A stretch of 52,651 nucleotides of DNA from positions 1 to 52,651 of IMG/VR virus record IMGVR_UViG_3300025508_000025, one strand, 5' to 3'. The translations under genes and the position numbers were made by a program. Position 1 is the stretch's first letter. Each line of letters opens with the position of its first letter. The notes under the pieces were generated by a model, which saw only the letters and a list, made by a program, of their open reading frames with translations, had not been told where the DNA came from and did not search any database. The DNA comes from a virus (Duplodnaviria > Caudoviricetes). Shown piece after piece: positions 37,485 to 42,911 of the stretch.

Positions 37485-37540
37485 TTTCTGTTTCGACCTT
37501 TTAGGTCTCATCAGGGAAAAAACACATTTTCCGACAGAAA
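37485..37540 (-). ncRNA. Hammerhead ribozyme HH1 (type III, canonical)
   Basis: UUUCUG-UC^GGAAAA-ugugUU-UUUUCC-CUGAUGA-GACC-uaaaa-GGUC-GAAA-CAGAAA; GUC cut 37533/37532. Confidence 0.93.
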
Positions 37541-37637: not shown

Positions 37638-39071
37638 CTAGTTATAGAAGTCAGCAGTTTCAACATAGACCACTTCGCCAAAGGCTAGGTTTTCTGAATA
37701 AGTGCTTTTATCTGTGACTGCCCAAAAGACAGGTACATCAGGCTCGACTTCAGGACTCACTTCACCCCAGCCGTCAGTGAAGTAAACAATAGCTTGAACA
37801 TCATCCACATCATCTGAATGATCATTGAACAAGTTAAATGGAGGGTCGAACAATGTTCCACCACCACCCCTCACCTGTAATTCAAGATCATCGCCTTGAT
37901 CTAACTCATAGATATCCCACCACTCGCCTTGTTGATTCTTACGAACAACAGTATCGCAGTAGCACACCCTGATCTTATCAAGACCACAATCCTCAGCCAT
38001 TGCCTGAATCTCAGTAGCGAACATATTCAATTCGTATTGAGAAACAGAACCACTGGTATCAATCATGATAGCTAACTCGCCACCTTGCGGAGACTTTGCT
38101 TTGCTAGGTAAATTAATACCTCGATGTTGATGCCTTTTGTTTAGCCTAGACCAAGTATTCTCTTCAGAGATAGAGGACTGCAAAAGATCATTAAGTTGTT
38201 CTCTCCAATCCACTTGCACTTCTTGATTCGCATCAGCAGAACCAAGACCACCTGAAGAACCAGTGCCACTCATAGCAATCTCTAACTTTTCAGCTAAAGA
38301 AATTGCTCTCTGAATTTCACCTTTAACTTCTTGCATTTCTGCATCAGTCAATGGTTTCCCTTCATCGTTAGTAGCATCCCATACTTCGCCAATTGCAGAG
38401 GGAATCGAATCCCAATCTGTGCCTGTTTCAACACCCTCTCCAGTGCTTTCATCAGATTCAGATTCGCCAATACCAGTATCGGAAATATTTCCTGTACCAG
38501 TCTCAGATAATTCTTCTCCCTCTTCATCAGTTGCTTCGCTTCCACCTTGGCTTTGAGCATCCTCTTCTTCAGAGGACTCTTCACCTTTTGGTTTCTGCTG
38601 ATTAATCTGATCAATCGCTTCTTCCAAGGCTTCTTCATCTTTTACCAAGATTGCATAAACCTTTTCAGCAGTCATGCCCTTGTACTTATGATCTAGTAAA
38701 CCGCCCAAAGGCAATTCAAGTTTTAAATCCCAGTACAAATAAGCATTGATCACATAGTCACAAGCGATATTCCAAATTTTAGGATGTCGCTTTCCTCTTC
38801 TCAAAGGATGTTCATAAACAACATGAAGTGCTTCATGAACAAGTACACCCTGTAATTCAGGCTCACTCAGACCCAAGACAAAAGGCGGAAAGTAATAAAT
38901 TACTTTTCCGTCAGTTGCCATTGTGTCGCATCTAGACTGATCAACTTCCACTAAATTAAGATGTAAGAGCATGGATGCCATGCCCACATTACCTTTCATT
39001 AGTTTTGCTCTCGCCTTAACTATGTAGTCATGAGCCAATTGTGGCTCTTTTACAGTTGCTAAATTAGTCAT
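37638..39071 (-). CDS. Metallopeptidase-vWA protein (DUF2201-like)
   Basis: TMATDG, LVHEALH, WNIACD, MIDAS IDTSGS, GGGGT, YFTDGWG; start MTNLAT with GGAGG SD. Confidence 0.85.
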   Translation of the reverse strand: MTNLATVKEPQLAHDYIVKARAKLMKGNVGMASMLLHLNLVEVDQSRCDTMATDGKVIYYFPPFVLGLSEPELQGVLVHEALHVVYEHPLRRGKRHPKIWNIACDYVINAYLYWDLKLELPLGGLLDHKYKGMTAEKVYAILVKDEEALEEAIDQINQQKPKGEESSEEEDAQSQGGSEATDEEGEELSETGTGNISDTGIGESESDESTGEGVETGTDWDSIPSAIGEVWDATNDEGKPLTDAEMQEVKGEIQRAISLAEKLEIAMSGTGSSGGLGSADANQEVQVDWREQLNDLLQSSISEENTWSRLNKRHQHRGINLPSKAKSPQGGELAIMIDTSGSVSQYELNMFATEIQAMAEDCGLDKIRVCYCDTVVRKNQQGEWWDIYELDQGDDLELQVRGGGGTLFDPPFNLFNDHSDDVDDVQAIVYFTDGWGEVSPEVEPDVPVFWAVTDKSTYSENLAFGEVVYVETADFYN

Positions 39072-40053
39072 GCTTTTTTCCTCCAAAGGCTTTTCCAAGA
39101 AAACCACCTTTAAGAGAATCAGCAGACTCTTCCAACTTCTTAGCTAAGTCTTTTCGCTTCTGTTCAGCTAAAGCATCATCTTCTCTCAGAGAGTCAATGC
39201 CATTGTTGTATCCATTAAACGTAGAAACAACGCTAACCAGTTTTTGATGAGCATCAGCAATATCTTGATCGTTACCTAAAATATCAGCGTTGATATTTGG
39301 TAAAGACCCAGTTAATTTTTCCAGTGCTTTAAAACTGGAAGCATTAAAGAAACCTTTTTGTTTCTGCTTGGGGTCATATTCCCTCAATTTTTTTGCTAAA
39401 TGATCAGTCTGTTCAAGGACAGCATCAACAGTGGTTTTAAGAACATTCTTAATATTATTGTTGATTCTATTCTTGACATCATTTTCTATCTTAGACCTTA
39501 ACTTCTCTGATACATTCAAACGAATGTCAGAGCCATATTGAGGAACAGTAGATATCTCAAATTCAAACTTAAACTTTCGTCTAAGTGAATCGAAGTCAGG
39601 GTAATCACATTCGTTGAATGCTTTACCTAAATTTCTTTTGGCTTGTTCCATTTTTTGTGGATAGCTTTTAAGAAACTCATCTACTTCTTTATCCCAAATC
39701 TGCTTTGCATCATCCACTTGATTCTGCAATGACTCTAACTGTGAGTTAGGGCATAAACGCCACCCACTCACAACCTTGTCATCCATATCAGTAGAATTAT
39801 CTGCCCAAGGCAAAGTCATCGGATAGTAATAATCATTCCTAAACTTATTTAAAATGTGGCGAAAATATTTGTTAATATCTTCTCCATAAATATGCTTAGA
39901 AACACCCAGTAATCTCTCGCTAGATACTTCAGTATCTATCGCTAAATCACGCTTTAACCTTTTATCTGTTCTGATTCCGCTAGGATGCTTCGCAGTCATG
40001 CGAACCAACACAGCATTCTCAGACAGAGTATTAGTCAATTTTTCTTTATCCAT
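39064..40053 (-). CDS. DUF3150-like protein
   Basis: TLPW...GWRL, DYP...LRRKFKF; lies between AAA and vWA genes; start MDKEK. Confidence 0.55.
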   Translation of the reverse strand: MDKEKLTNTLSENAVLVRMTAKHPSGIRTDKRLKRDLAIDTEVSSERLLGVSKHIYGEDINKYFRHILNKFRNDYYYPMTLPWADNSTDMDDKVVSGWRLCPNSQLESLQNQVDDAKQIWDKEVDEFLKSYPQKMEQAKRNLGKAFNECDYPDFDSLRRKFKFEFEISTVPQYGSDIRLNVSEKLRSKIENDVKNRINNNIKNVLKTTVDAVLEQTDHLAKKLREYDPKQKQKGFFNASSFKALEKLTGSLPNINADILGNDQDIADAHQKLVSVVSTFNGYNNGIDSLREDDALAEQKRKDLAKKLEESADSLKGGFLGKAFGGKKHD

Positions 40054-40189: not shown

Positions 40190-41239
40190 CTAGACTTCTA
40201 AGTCTTGATTCTTGATCTTGAATTCTCCATATCTTGCAGAATCCACAATATCGCTTCTTGCTCCAACAAGCGATCTCACAAAGAAAATTCCAAACTCAGG
40301 GGTAGGAAATTTCTCAATGTAATCAAGAGCATTAGCAAAGTAGTCATGCAAGTTGCTATCACTAGCTTCTTTTATAACACTCACTAATGCACAGACAGTT
40401 GCATACATCAGACCACCACTATCAACAACCTCGACATCTCCACCCTCACAAATTTCTTGCAAGTTGGGAACATCATTTTTCAGTGATAGGAATGACATAA
40501 ACTCGATACTAGCAGTTTCACCTACATCGCCTTGCACAAGTAATTGCACAATTTCTTTAGGTGGATTGCATTTAAGAGTATCGCTTAACCTCACCCATGA
40601 TCTAGGACTAGGCTGTGGGGTAGTAACCTTGGCATTAAAGTCATGCAACCACTCAGGCTGAAAACTTATGAACCCCAAAATTTCAGGACAAATATCATTC
40701 TTACTTGCCCATGCTAACCAATCATCAGGACTATGCTCAAAATCGACCATAGTGCATCTATCTGATACATGACTAGGAAGTTTATTGCTTCCTGCTCTAT
40801 CAGTTGCTCTATTACCTGCACAGATTGTTCTCCACCCTTTAGGCAAAGAATAGTCTCCTATCCTTCCCTCATACAGCAATTGCCCACATACAGCCTGAAC
40901 AGAATTCGATGCTTGGGCATACTCATCAAAGAATAAAATCCCTTCACCACTTACAGGAAGATTGCCCAAAAAGGCTCTCTTCTGTTCATTCGCATCATTG
41001 ATATAAGGCAAACCACCTAAATCAACAGACTCATATAACGACAGTCTGAAATCAATAAATCCAAACTCATTTTGAGTAGGATTAATTTTATCCACGACTA
41101 CCTTCCTATCCATAGCAATGTCATCGACATATGCTCGAACAATTGCACTTTTTCCAATACCTGTTCCCCCTAAAAGGAATGGAGTATTAGACCCTTTTAA
41201 AACTGCCTTAATCGACAGTAATGCTTGACTTGGTTTCAT
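40190..41239 (-). CDS. MoxR-like AAA+ ATPase
   Basis: Walker A GGTGIGKS, Walker B ILFFDE, CAGNR, PSPRSW; start MKPSQ. Confidence 0.85.
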   Translation of the reverse strand: MKPSQALLSIKAVLKGSNTPFLLGGTGIGKSAIVRAYVDDIAMDRKVVVDKINPTQNEFGFIDFRLSLYESVDLGGLPYINDANEQKRAFLGNLPVSGEGILFFDEYAQASNSVQAVCGQLLYEGRIGDYSLPKGWRTICAGNRATDRAGSNKLPSHVSDRCTMVDFEHSPDDWLAWASKNDICPEILGFISFQPEWLHDFNAKVTTPQPSPRSWVRLSDTLKCNPPKEIVQLLVQGDVGETASIEFMSFLSLKNDVPNLQEICEGGDVEVVDSGGLMYATVCALVSVIKEASDSNLHDYFANALDYIEKFPTPEFGIFFVRSLVGARSDIVDSARYGEFKIKNQDLEV

Positions 41240-41310
41240 ATTAATAACCTCCAAAGTTTTTATGATTCAAGTTAGTTTCAGCTACCAATAAATATTATTT
41301 ACCAGTAACT

Positions 41311-41372
41311 ACCAATACTGGATAACAATTTGCTATCCAGTTTCATAGCATTTCAGCTAATCTTCAGTTGGT
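41311..41372 (-). ncRNA. Hammerhead ribozyme HH3 (type I, U10.1-U11.1 variant)
   Basis: ACCAA-CUGAAGA-UUAGC-ugaaau-GCUAU-GAAA-CUGGAUAGC-aaauu-GUUAUCCAG-UA^UUGGU; cut 41316/41315. Confidence 0.85.
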
Positions 41373-41714
41373 TTAAGTAATGGTGTTAGAGACAAATTCA
41401 TCATTTGGATTTTTCCAACAATCTCTAGACATAAGACCATTTTCTAAAATGTATTCCAAATGCTTAGTGGCATTTTTAATGTTATTAAACATTCTTGCCC
41501 TTGCTCCACTTTCATCACATAGATATTCATTATCTTTTGCTAAAAAATAATAACTTCTATTTTCTCCATACAATTCTTTTATTAATTCATATTCATTCCA
41601 AGAATAAATATGAACATCAATCTCATTATGTGGTTCTACTATTCGCTTGTTATCTCTCCAAACTTTCCACTGTTTAGAGATAACTTTTTTATTAGACCAT
41701 TTAATTTTATCCAT
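41373..41714 (-). CDS. Hypothetical early protein
   Basis: GGAGG SD; flanked by hammerheads. Confidence 0.65.
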   Translation of the reverse strand: MDKIKWSNKKVISKQWKVWRDNKRIVEPHNEIDVHIYSWNEYELIKELYGENRSYYFLAKDNEYLCDESGARARMFNNIKNATKHLEYILENGLMSRDCWKNPNDEFVSNTIT

Positions 41715-41743
41715 AATTTTTGACCCTCCAAGGTCAGTTAATT

Positions 41744-41804
41744 ACCAATAACAGACAGCACTCGCTATCTGTTTTCATAGCATCTCAGCTAATCTTCAGT
41801 TGGC
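41744..41804 (-). ncRNA. Hammerhead ribozyme HH4 (type I, U10.1-U11.1 variant)
   Basis: GCCAA-CUGAAGA-UUAGC-ugagau-GCUAU-GAAA-ACAGAUAGC-gagu-GCUGUCUGU-UA^UUGGU; cut 41749/41748; stem III covaries with HH3. Confidence 0.85.
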
Positions 41805-42059
41805 TTAAAAAGTGTTTTTATCCCATTCAGGATTAACATTTTTTTCATCCCAATCCATATCCAATTGATTCAATAAGAATATTGTTGGCAAATAATCGTC
41901 ATGTTGATTACCCCAATCTTCCTCATAGGTTTCCAATTTTCTTTTGTATATGTCTAATGCTTTCCATAAAATCAGACTTGTATCTTCATTTACAGTTAGC
42001 TGTTTAGTCATAATTACCTTTGGCGTTTTCATACCAATTTGTTTATTTTCTTTTTGCAT
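41805..42059 (-). CDS. Hypothetical early protein (84 aa)
   Basis: Start MQKENK at 42059 with GGAGG SD. Confidence 0.6.
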   Translation of the reverse strand: MQKENKQIGMKTPKVIMTKQLTVNEDTSLILWKALDIYKRKLETYEEDWGNQHDDYLPTIFLLNQLDMDWDEKNVNPEWDKNTF

Positions 42060-42090
42060 AATTTTTGACCCTCCAAGGTCATGTTTAATT

Positions 42091-42176
42091 ACCAAGATTC
42101 CCTCGAAAGGGTCAGGGCATTACTGCTACCTGTTTTAAAATTTCGACTGGATTCTCGCCAGTCATCATCAGTTGGT
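42091..42176 (-). ncRNA. Hammerhead ribozyme HH5 (type I, branched stem III)
   Basis: ACCAA-CUGAUGA-u-GACUGG-cgagaau-CCAGUC-GAAA-UU-[two hairpins]-AA-UC^UUGGU; cut 42096/42095. Confidence 0.75.
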
Positions 42177-42593
42177 TTACCCTGTATTTTTTATAGGGTC
42201 ATCAAGGAAAACATCTCCATGCACAGAACGAATAACATAATTAAGATTTTCGTTTATCGTTATTTGTCTATCGTTAATGAATAAGATTTGATTTCCCTTG
42301 ATCTGTTTAAGATAAACAGAATCAGATGCAAAAACATAGGAAAAAATAGCGTTTAATCTCTCCCTTGTTGTGACTGTATCCCACCCACACATTGAAAAAC
42401 ATAAGTGAATATTGTTACTTAAATTTTCGCTAGGATGATTGTTCTCGAACCATGCAATTTTATTGTCATGCAAGAAAACCCCTTGCTGTTTTTTGCTCGA
42501 CCATTCTGATATTGGTCGAATTCTAGTATTGCCCATTATTTTATTTACATTTTCAGTAAATGCTTCAGCAATTTCTTTTGATACTTTTCTCAT
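42177..42593 (-). CDS. Hypothetical protein, first gene of early operon
   Basis: GGAGGT SD; LHDNKIA, GWDTVTTRERLNA motif. Confidence 0.65.
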   Translation of the reverse strand: MRKVSKEIAEAFTENVNKIMGNTRIRPISEWSSKKQQGVFLHDNKIAWFENNHPSENLSNNIHLCFSMCGWDTVTTRERLNAIFSYVFASDSVYLKQIKGNQILFINDRQITINENLNYVIRSVHGDVFLDDPIKNTG

Positions 42594-42613
42594 AAGTTAA
42601 ACCTCCAAGGTTT

Positions 42614-42665
42614 TGTTTCTTGAACCCCAAAATAGGATTCTCTTCAGCCTGTTAATTCAGGGACA
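42614..42665 (-). ncRNA. Hammerhead ribozyme HH6 (type III, variant)
   Basis: UG-UC^CCUG-aauuaa-CAGG-CUGAAGA-GAAUCCUA-uuu-UGGGGUUC-aa-GAAA-CA; AA insertion before GAAA; cut 42662/42661. Confidence 0.6.
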
Positions 42666-42911
42666 GTTGGAGGACTGCCTAGGACATACTGCAGTAGCAA
42701 GTATCGGTGTATCGTGAACGCCTAAGTAGTTTCCATTTCACTACATCTCAGGGAACGCTTTTTGTTTTGATGCTTCTCTTTATCATCGAGGGTAAATCTA
42801 GAGACCCTCAGCTAAGTTAGTATCTTAATAAGTAATACAGCTACCTAGCAGTCATATATGGCTGTTCTATAAAGACCTCCTTTTTGGTTTAATATTCGTT
42901 GTCATGTGCAT

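Follow-up and report, generated by a model that had tools for sequence, protein, structure and literature searches.

No small ribozyme has been studied more thoroughly than the hammerhead, yet what it does in phages is not settled, and natural elaborations beyond three plain stems are few. In engineered allosteric hammerheads (aptazymes), an aptamer is grafted onto a stem through a short bridge. A nucleotide inserted between A9 and G10.1 of the core is another variation, for which De la Pena and Flores (2001) is reportedly the reference. In the accessible portions of two papers, such an insertion is described for CChMVd(+) (A10) and for hammerheads of Penelope-like elements (PMC3705267, PMC4209133); in CChMVd, the extra nucleotide after A9 was tolerated and a U there raised the trans-cleavage rate 3-4 fold (PMC3705267). 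Hammerheads also occur in prophages as clusters flanking single genes, and tandem units of this kind cleaved in vitro and in E. coli (PMC3088659, accessible portions here and below). The same source reports that U10.1-U11.1 occurs in natural hammerheads and is more favorable to cleavage than other mismatches. Already on record are thus the hammerhead class itself, its occurrence as clusters within phage operons, the variant with a U-U mismatch, and the extra nucleotide after A9.

The window analyzed here (the whole 52,651-nt stretch of viral DNA) contains an array that resembles the clusters of Perreault et al. 2011 (PMC3088659). Several same-strand hammerheads flank small genes of varying identity, types I and III are mixed in one array, a U10.1-U11.1 variant is present, and for both systems the proposed role is to divide long phage transcripts into mRNAs of single genes. 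Unlike the clusters in the accessible text of that paper, every type I unit abuts an upstream stop codon and one stem III is a conserved two-hairpin three-way junction. No description of a conserved branched stem III built from an A-rich linker and two hairpins was found in the accessible portions of PMC3088659, PMC6155905, and PMC6765202, and Dataset S1 and Figures S6-S8 of PMC3088659 may contain members. As in the CChMVd(+) and Penelope-like hammerheads, one nucleotide is inserted at the same place, U being favorable in the CChMVd context; unlike in those systems as described in the accessible text, the nucleotide is optional within the family, and the setting is a DNA phage rather than a viroid or retroelement. 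Like an aptazyme, the element has an extra folded domain behind a very short closing helix, so that folding of the domain could gate the core, but it is a natural element with no known ligand or aptamer match, and its stem III domain is interchangeable with a plain hairpin.

A Type I Hammerhead with a Branched Stem III

The minus strand at 42176..42091 encodes an 86-nt RNA that reads as a hammerhead with a complete core, classed as type I because stem I is open. It is located within the 117-nt spacer that extends from the TAA of the ORF at 42177..42593 (minus strand) to the ATG of the next minus-strand ORF (42059). The parts of the element, with the basis of each assignment, are as follows.

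42091..42176, minus strand: type I hammerhead with branched stem III (sequence; own covariance model R1, 107.7 bits; covariation in 37 distinct homologues)
42176..42091, minus strand, full 86-nt RNA: ACCAA / CUGAUGA / U / GACUGG-CGAGAAU-CCAGUC / GAA / AUU / UUAAAA / CAGG-UA-GCA-GUAA-UGC-CCUG / A / CCCU-UUCG-AGGG / AAU / C / UUGGU
42172..42176, minus strand: stem I 5′ strand ACCAA, pairing with UUGGU 42091-42095 and immediately 3′ of the TAA stop 42177-42179
42165..42171, minus strand: core C3-A9, CUGAUGA (sequence)
42164, minus strand: extra U between A9 and G10.1 (sequence; homologue counts)
42145..42163, minus strand: stem II GACUGG/CCAGUC (6 bp) with loop II CGAGAAU (covariation)
42142..42144, minus strand: core G12 A13 A14, GAA (sequence; invariant in alignments A2 and A4)
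42139..42141, minus strand: stem III 5′ strand AUU, A15.1 first, pairing with AAU 42097-42099 (3 bp)
42133..42138, minus strand: junction linker UUAAAA (homologue counts)
42113..42132, minus strand: hairpin 1, CAGG-UA(bulge)-GCA-GUAA-UGC-CCUG, GNRA loop 42120-42123 (covariation; RNAalifold)
42112, minus strand: single A linking the two hairpins (sequence; A in most homologues)
42100..42111, minus strand: hairpin 2, CCCU-UUCG-AGGG, abutting the stem III 3′ strand without a spacer (covariation)
42097..42099, minus strand: stem III 3′ strand AAU, U16.1 last, pairing with AUU 42139-42141
42096, minus strand: C17, with cleavage predicted at 42096/42095 (position from the hammerhead consensus)
42091..42095, minus strand: stem I 3′ strand UUGGU (sequence; covaries with ACCAA)

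Stem III closes a three-way junction composed of the UUAAAA linker, the bulged GNRA hairpin, and the CCCU/AGGG hairpin, and the G10.1-C11.1 pair is present, set off from A9 by the one extra U. A preliminary description of this DNA had proposed a hammerhead with a multibranched stem III, AUU/AAU, enclosing hairpins with GUAA and UUCG loops, together with an extra U after A9. Each of these assignments held on the minus-strand reading: the core and three covarying helices are present, A15.1-U16.1 is invariant, H17 is C, and the additional U lies at 42164. The cleavage position it predicted, after C 42096, agrees with the hammerhead consensus, and the viroid precedent it invoked for the extra nucleotide is found in CChMVd(+) (PMC3705267, PMC4209133, accessible portions). 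With regard to a tertiary contact between stem I and loop II, as in extended hammerheads, the UAA of the stop codon could pair with a UUA 2 nt past UUGGU, which would give a bulged, longer stem I, an extension that applies to only some of the downstream flank types.

All of the described helices are present in the minimum free energy structure of the element (-22.5 kcal/mol, z = -1.8), and 11 of 200 shuffled sequences fold equally well. A strict type I descriptor was also applied, which called for 5/5 pairs in stem I, CUGANGA with or without one further nucleotide after it, 4 bp or more in stem II with a G-C closing pair, GAAA, a stem III closing helix of 3 bp or more, and U-H. It matched the window (both strands) once, at the candidate, and gave one match in total over 300 dinucleotide-preserving shuffles of the window. 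A loose hammerhead pattern found 19 places in the window, mostly in clear coding sequence, one of which led to the second ribozyme of the array. These 19 places, the short and frequent CUGAUGA and GAAA motifs, and a folding z of only -1.8 speak for a resemblance to the hammerhead consensus that arose by chance in an AT-rich spacer between genes, but that explanation has to be set against the single descriptor match in 300 shuffles, 37 covarying homologues, and three further hammerheads on the same strand, and it is considered exceedingly improbable.

Homologues Preserve the Core and Compensate All Helices

Homologues were collected by a protein search with the upstream 138-aa ORF, by pattern scans of viral contigs (IMG/VR), and by a pattern scan of metagenome contigs, and structural filtering of the collected loci yielded 37 distinct branched hammerheads, plus many plain hammerheads. 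The metagenome scan returned at least 118 loci, most of which were one recurrent coding sequence in gut assemblies, and about a dozen new family members were found among the matches listed. One of its matches (L321) was a false positive, and L158 was rejected as a branched form: it folds into one long hairpin. Genome contigs searched with a pattern of stop codon, stem I, and core gave at least 120 loci, with no hammerhead of the candidate's family by the descriptor among the matches listed; the descriptor match L483, with a 22-nt loop II and a different stem I, was taken as chance.

In the alignment of the 37 homologues (A5), 98.4% of 875 cells form standard pairs and 18 of the 24 pairs show double (compensatory) changes, counts that lean toward our own model because A5, like A4, was fitted to it. 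None of 500 column shuffles of A5 reached any of five measures, and sliding the partner columns by 1-3 positions reduced pairing to 23-45%. The double changes are divided among the helices as listed below, where several of those in stem I, the outer helix of hairpin 1, and hairpin 2 are seen in no more than two sequences.

Stem I: double changes at 4/5 pairs
Stem II: double changes at 5/6 pairs; G10.1-C11.1 is GC in 35/35 rows with letters
Stem III: double changes at 2/3 pairs; A15.1-U16.1, the remaining pair, is invariant
Hairpin 1, outer helix: double changes at 3/3 pairs
Hairpin 1, inner helix: double changes at 2/3 pairs
Hairpin 2: double changes at 2/4 pairs; the two middle C-G pairs are invariant

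Without an imposed structure, RNAalifold recovered stems I and II and both hairpins; the 3-bp stem III was not predicted by RNAalifold on its own. Among the 37 homologues, positions 15.1/16.1 are AU in every case, positions 15.2/16.2 are CG (20), UA (11), or AU (6), and positions 15.3/16.3 are UA (23), AU (9), or CG (5). The stem as a whole takes the forms ACU/AGU (11), AUU/AAU (11), ACA/UGU (7), AAC/GUU (5), AGAAA/UUUCU (2), and AAU/AUU (1). The insert is conserved and no isolated case: all 37 distinct homologues carry it.

The CUGANGA core is retained in 36 of the 37 homologues with any base at N7 (CUGAUGA 20, CUGACGA 7, CUGAAGA 7, CUGAGGA 2); the remaining one has CCGAUGA, and relatives with this U4C change may be inactive. 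H17 is C in 34 and A in 3. The nucleotide after A9 is U in 23, C in one, A in one, and absent in 12, and it accompanies the 6-bp types of stem II and not the 5-bp types. The extra U is optional and is no fixed feature of the branched variant. In the junction, the linker reads UUAAAC (24), UUAAAA (11), UUAAAU (1), or UUAAAG (1). The near-invariance of CCAA and UUAAA is partly by construction, because most search patterns imposed both; UUAAA is present in 12/12 members found without a linker requirement. Inspection by eye revealed no Watson-Crick partner for the linker in loop II or the flanks and no covariation of the type of GNRA loop with the sequence of stem I or stem II.

The loops of the two hairpins vary in sequence. 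Hairpin 1 of the main type ends in GUAA, GAAA, GUGA, GAGA, GGAA, or GCAA, whereas in a shorter subtype (L241, L383, and L013:1337) the hairpin is 4 bp long and its loop is GUAU or GCAU. A model in which the tetraloop docks is weakened by this subtype, since it is without a GNRA loop. The loop of hairpin 2 is free to vary, with an insertion of about 30 nt in L336 and an extended stem in L348. Stem II types and stem III domain types are found in varied combinations.

The Insert Is Exchangeable with a Plain Hairpin

Comparison of orthologous sites shows how the insert is distributed. With the same flanks on both sides, L013, L014, and L019 are branched and L015 has an unrelated 10-bp hairpin, its core, stem I, and C17 being unchanged, which amounts to covariation at the level of an entire module. 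A plain-hairpin hammerhead, L010:2439, likewise follows the same 138-aa ORF and precedes the same downstream leader as the element in the window. At orthologous sites a plain hairpin can thus stand in for the branched insert, and sister hammerheads that share stem I and loop II exist without it, which counts against a stabilizing role for the insert. A pattern for the domain only found 36 IMG/VR loci, 35 of them inside a hammerhead; the other match (L389) is unrelated GC-rich sequence. When the flanks of branched and plain forms were compared, no tie of the insert to particular neighboring genes was found, and both have the same range of downstream modules, which are a Shine-Dalgarno hairpin or one of several perfect hairpins beginning immediately 3′ of UUGGU.

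These observations bear on the suggestion of the preliminary description that the insert may be an allosteric or protein-binding module. On that reading the hammerhead is real and its cleavage is switched on or off by the insert, acting as a small-molecule aptamer or through a bound protein of the phage or the host. Such a module would account for the conservation of unpaired nucleotides (the UUAAA linker, the 2-nt bulge, and the GNRA class) and for the invariance of the C-G pairs in hairpin 2. A stem III of only 3 bp would need the junction to be folded, an arrangement also used in engineered allosteric hammerheads. In the accessible text of Perreault et al. (PMC3088659), slower phage hammerheads are speculated to respond to signals. 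Against this reading, plain hairpins take the place of the insert in relatives, the insert accompanies no one gene, the region yielded no match to a known aptamer or RNA family at E ≤ 10, and no candidate protein partner was found; the junction is also small (about 45 nt), and both of its terminal loops are of stable-tetraloop classes whose sequence is not conserved. The analysis turned up no evidence of an allosteric or protein-binding role, and we regard a regulatory module as rather unlikely.

Curated Models Overlook the Type I Units

At the gathering threshold, Rfam gave no match in the whole window. A sensitive cmscan of 41950-42350 at E ≤ 10 returned no hammerhead, only chance-level snoRNA and sRNA matches, and no known riboswitch, aptamer, or other curated RNA family in the insert (42097-42141); the corresponding scan of 41200-41850 gave chance-level matches only. 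The candidate was also unmatched by RF00163 (Hammerhead_1; gathering 34 bits) at E ≤ 1 across the whole record. The expectation in the preliminary description that standard models would miss this fold was thereby confirmed, both for all Rfam hammerhead families on the 401-nt segment and for RF00163. Rfam misses the candidate because of the 45-nt branched insert and the extra U, and it misses the other two type I units because of a U-U mismatch at 10.1/11.1. The locus shares with RF00163 and RF00008 (clan CL00010) the catalytic core, A15.1-U16.1, H17, and the three-helix junction; in contrast to members of those families, the three type I units of the window score no match, whereas the type III neighbor reaches 47.5 bits with RF00008. 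Because 0/3 of the type I units were found by Rfam, counts of phage ribozymes are underestimates, and entire subfamilies escape the curated covariance models.

Neither the 1-kb region nor the 98-nt element had a BLAST match among 50,697 phage records. R1 was run on HTVC027P, HTVC023P, 023Pt_psg01, and DSL-LC04, the named phages with the most similar large terminase, and found nothing in any of the four at E ≤ 0.1, a null result that shows little because it was run without a positive control. RF00163 gave only sub-threshold, chance-level matches on the same four phages and the window.

The Element Belongs to an Array of Intergenic Hammerheads

R1 was used to scan the window with filters off, and the elements associated with the candidate are the following.

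42057..42080, minus strand: Shine-Dalgarno-presenting hairpin GACC-UUGGAG-GGUC, followed by ATG 42057-42059 (sequence; the same hairpin was flagged on the opposite strand at 42066-42081)
41744..41804, minus strand: second type I hammerhead, R1 22.9 bits, E 4.5e-4; simple stem III, U10.1-U11.1, H17 = A; directly after the stop of ORF 41805..42095
41311..41372, minus strand: third type I hammerhead, R1 25.0 bits, E 1.1e-4; simple stem III, U10.1-U11.1, H17 = A; directly after the stop of ORF 41373..41714
37485..37540, minus strand: canonical type III hammerhead, RF00008 47.5 bits against a gathering score of 48.5; E 1.6e-9 in a 401-nt segment, 2.1e-7 over the entire window

The array consists of three type I units, each directly after a TAA stop, and one type III unit 4.6 kb further along the minus strand from the candidate, all in minus-strand intergenic spacers. 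TAA immediately precedes stem I in 48 of 60 distinct hammerhead-plus-flank rows. GGAGG is displayed in the loop of the hairpin that precedes the downstream ATG, and the same Shine-Dalgarno hairpin module lies 3′ of many related hammerheads. The repeated and exact placement between stop codon and ribosome-binding site lends support to ribozyme cleavage as the means by which some phages divide their operons into messages of one gene each.

Three metatranscriptome runs contain 7-8% of the sampled words and gave short contigs that represent relatives only and in which RNA ends are not visible; stretches that these contigs leave uncovered carry no meaning. In one contig from an RNA library, a relative's second and third hammerheads are joined inside their shared core, skipping the 432 nt between them. 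A fusion of this kind is what might be expected if the 60-90-nt, near-identical units that separate gene cassettes were hammerhead-derived repeats that no longer need to cleave and matter mainly for DNA or RNA structure, acting as recombination linkers or 3′-end stabilizing structures. The same stem I (ACCAA/UUGGU) and core do recur beside different genes with mixed stem II and stem III types, and some copies have U10.1-U11.1 or U4C core changes. Recombination at repeats is, however, compatible with active ribozymes and leaves the conservation of the core unexplained: the catalytic positions C3-A9, G12-A14, and a non-G at 17, which pairing alone would not require, are kept in 36/37 distinct copies, compensatory changes maintain all helices, and U10.1-U11.1 is the mismatch that better supports cleavage (PMC3088659). 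That the units are such repeats is therefore judged quite improbable.

Proposed Function of the Ribozyme and Its Insert

The data show the anatomy of the sequence, its conservation and covariation, its setting in an array, and the exchange of the insert among relatives; that the RNA cleaves and processes mRNA, and what the insert does and how it is arranged in space, are inferred. With a probability of roughly 0.7, the element is a genuine type I self-cleaving ribozyme that cuts polycistronic phage mRNA, and its insert folds by itself as an optional addition to stem III. An active ribozyme is favored because residues needed only for catalysis are conserved, the helices are compensated, and the array matches published clusters of phage hammerheads. 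The element would be part of the transcript of a tailed phage's minus-strand block of genes, and this polycistronic transcript would fold into the hammerhead and cut itself after C17 (42096/42095). On the upstream mRNA the entire ribozyme, branched domain included, would remain as a structured 3′ end bearing a 2′,3′-cyclic phosphate. The downstream mRNA would begin with 5′-OH-UUGGU about 35 nt before the start codon, followed by a hairpin.

Long A-rich strands of three-way junctions usually lie in the neighboring minor groove. In the junction described here, hairpin 2 (CCC/GGG) would be expected to stack on the 3-bp stem III, because it abuts the 3′ strand of that stem without a spacer. Hairpin 1 would be tethered by a 1-nt link on one side and by the conserved 6-nt A-rich UUAAAN linker on the other and, by the usual behavior of three-way junctions, would lean toward stem III and the core. 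On this view, the junction may stabilize a very short stem III, with hairpin 1 perhaps folded back toward the core, and the insert may be an optional structural or kinetic elaboration rather than a gene-specific switch. A self-contained fold of this kind agrees with the invariance of the C-G pairs in hairpin 2 and of the linker adenines.

Greater interest would attach to the junction if it gates or clamps the ribozyme. It is unlikely, though worth entertaining, that the junction is a control or docking module (an aptamer or protein site gating the cutting of the operon) or an undescribed tertiary clamp. In a clamp, the linker could occupy the minor groove of CCC/GGG and hairpin 1 could rest on the core, replacing or adding to the contact between stem I and loop II. 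The branched and plain forms offer a natural comparison, with the same core, stem I, and loop II and sometimes the same genomic site, and it allows the effect of the added domain on folding, Mg2+ demand, speed, or regulation to be tested.

Phage Relationships and Occurrence of the Locus

PHROG matches mark the region as phage. The plus-strand neighbors are the small and large terminase subunits, and the minus-strand block includes an ATPase family and a family labeled HNH endonuclease; the small ORFs beside the hammerheads have no known function by PHROG matches. The large terminase is 55% identical to that of HTVC027P and 51% identical to that of HTVC023P, both Pelagibacter phages, and by this protein sequence the source is a tailed phage whose nearest cultured relatives are Pelagibacter phages. 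Half or more of the sampled words of 41200-42700 are held by 17 of the 24 sequencing runs listed. Once the five runs flagged as potential sources are set aside, along with a further run that shares sample and study with one of them, eight studies remain, labeled freshwater, aquatic, or viral metagenome.

Hammerheads on the minus strand and their relatives

The type I hammerhead at 42091..42176, whose stem III closes a three-way junction with two hairpins (the branched form), is followed on the minus strand by two type I units in which stem III is a simple hairpin (the plain form), and by a type III unit:

41744-41804, minus: type I hammerhead, plain stem III; U10.1-U11.1 mismatch (UUAGC...GCUAU), A at position 17
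41311-41372, minus: type I hammerhead, plain stem III; the same mismatch, A at position 17
37485-37540, minus: canonical type III hammerhead, in the gap that separates ORF 37638..39107 from the gene after it

Neither plain type I unit was matched by Rfam. The type III unit scored 47.5 bits against RF00008 (Hammerhead_3), one bit below the gathering score, and is therefore unseen by default Rfam annotation.

The stem II of the branched unit, with its extra U after A9, recurs in plain type I hammerheads of GC-rich, unrelated phage contigs (L016/L017, and L022, which has two copies), matches selected by a pattern that required this stem II form; the form is therefore not confined to the phage group of the window. 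In the related contig L013, five hammerheads lie within 1.63 kb (1337-2967) with branched and plain units alternating, as also in L015 and L019, and every hammerhead of these arrays is flanked by very small ORFs. The core reads CCGAUGA (U4C) in two copies, L388 2288-2370 and L013 2905-2967; these may be weak or dead ribozymes retained in the array.

A 218-nt contig of a relative from a marine RNA library (run X20) joins 41352 to 41785, omitting 432 nt that include the gene 41373..41714. The join falls inside the core common to the third and second hammerheads, and 19 letters of its position are ambiguous. Most simply, the contig represents a relative without this gene cassette, by recombination between hammerhead repeats, although the contig alone cannot separate this from a join made at the RNA level.

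Stop codons and hairpins flanking the type I hammerheads

The type I units lie against recurrent sequence features:

42177-42179, 41805-41807 and 41373-41375, minus: TAA stops abutting stem I of the three type I units
42067-42080 and the 41719-41732 region, minus: leader module GACC-UUGGAG-GGUC with the Shine-Dalgarno sequence in the hairpin loop; recurrent in many relatives
41281-41310, minus: perfect or near-perfect hairpin right after UUGGU of the predicted cleavage product; also in L010, L012, L225, L244 and other related contigs

Both plain units begin at the base immediately 3' of the stop. Among 60 distinct hammerhead-plus-flank rows from the window and related loci, the upstream gene's TAA lies immediately 5' of stem I in 48, and in 5 further rows the first base of stem I is itself part of a stop codon. 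With the stop so placed, stem I and the core would lie under a terminating ribosome, an arrangement that suggests a possible coupling of translation and cleavage. The leader hairpin sits just 5' of AUUAUG, and the UUGG in its loop repeats the stem I 3' strand, so that ACCAA could pair with either. The hairpins after UUGGU are of several recurring sequence types, including UUACUGGUAAAUAAUAUUUAYUGGUA and GCUAUCAAUYUGAUAGC, and may shield the downstream mRNA at its 5' end or act as palindromic sites for protein binding.
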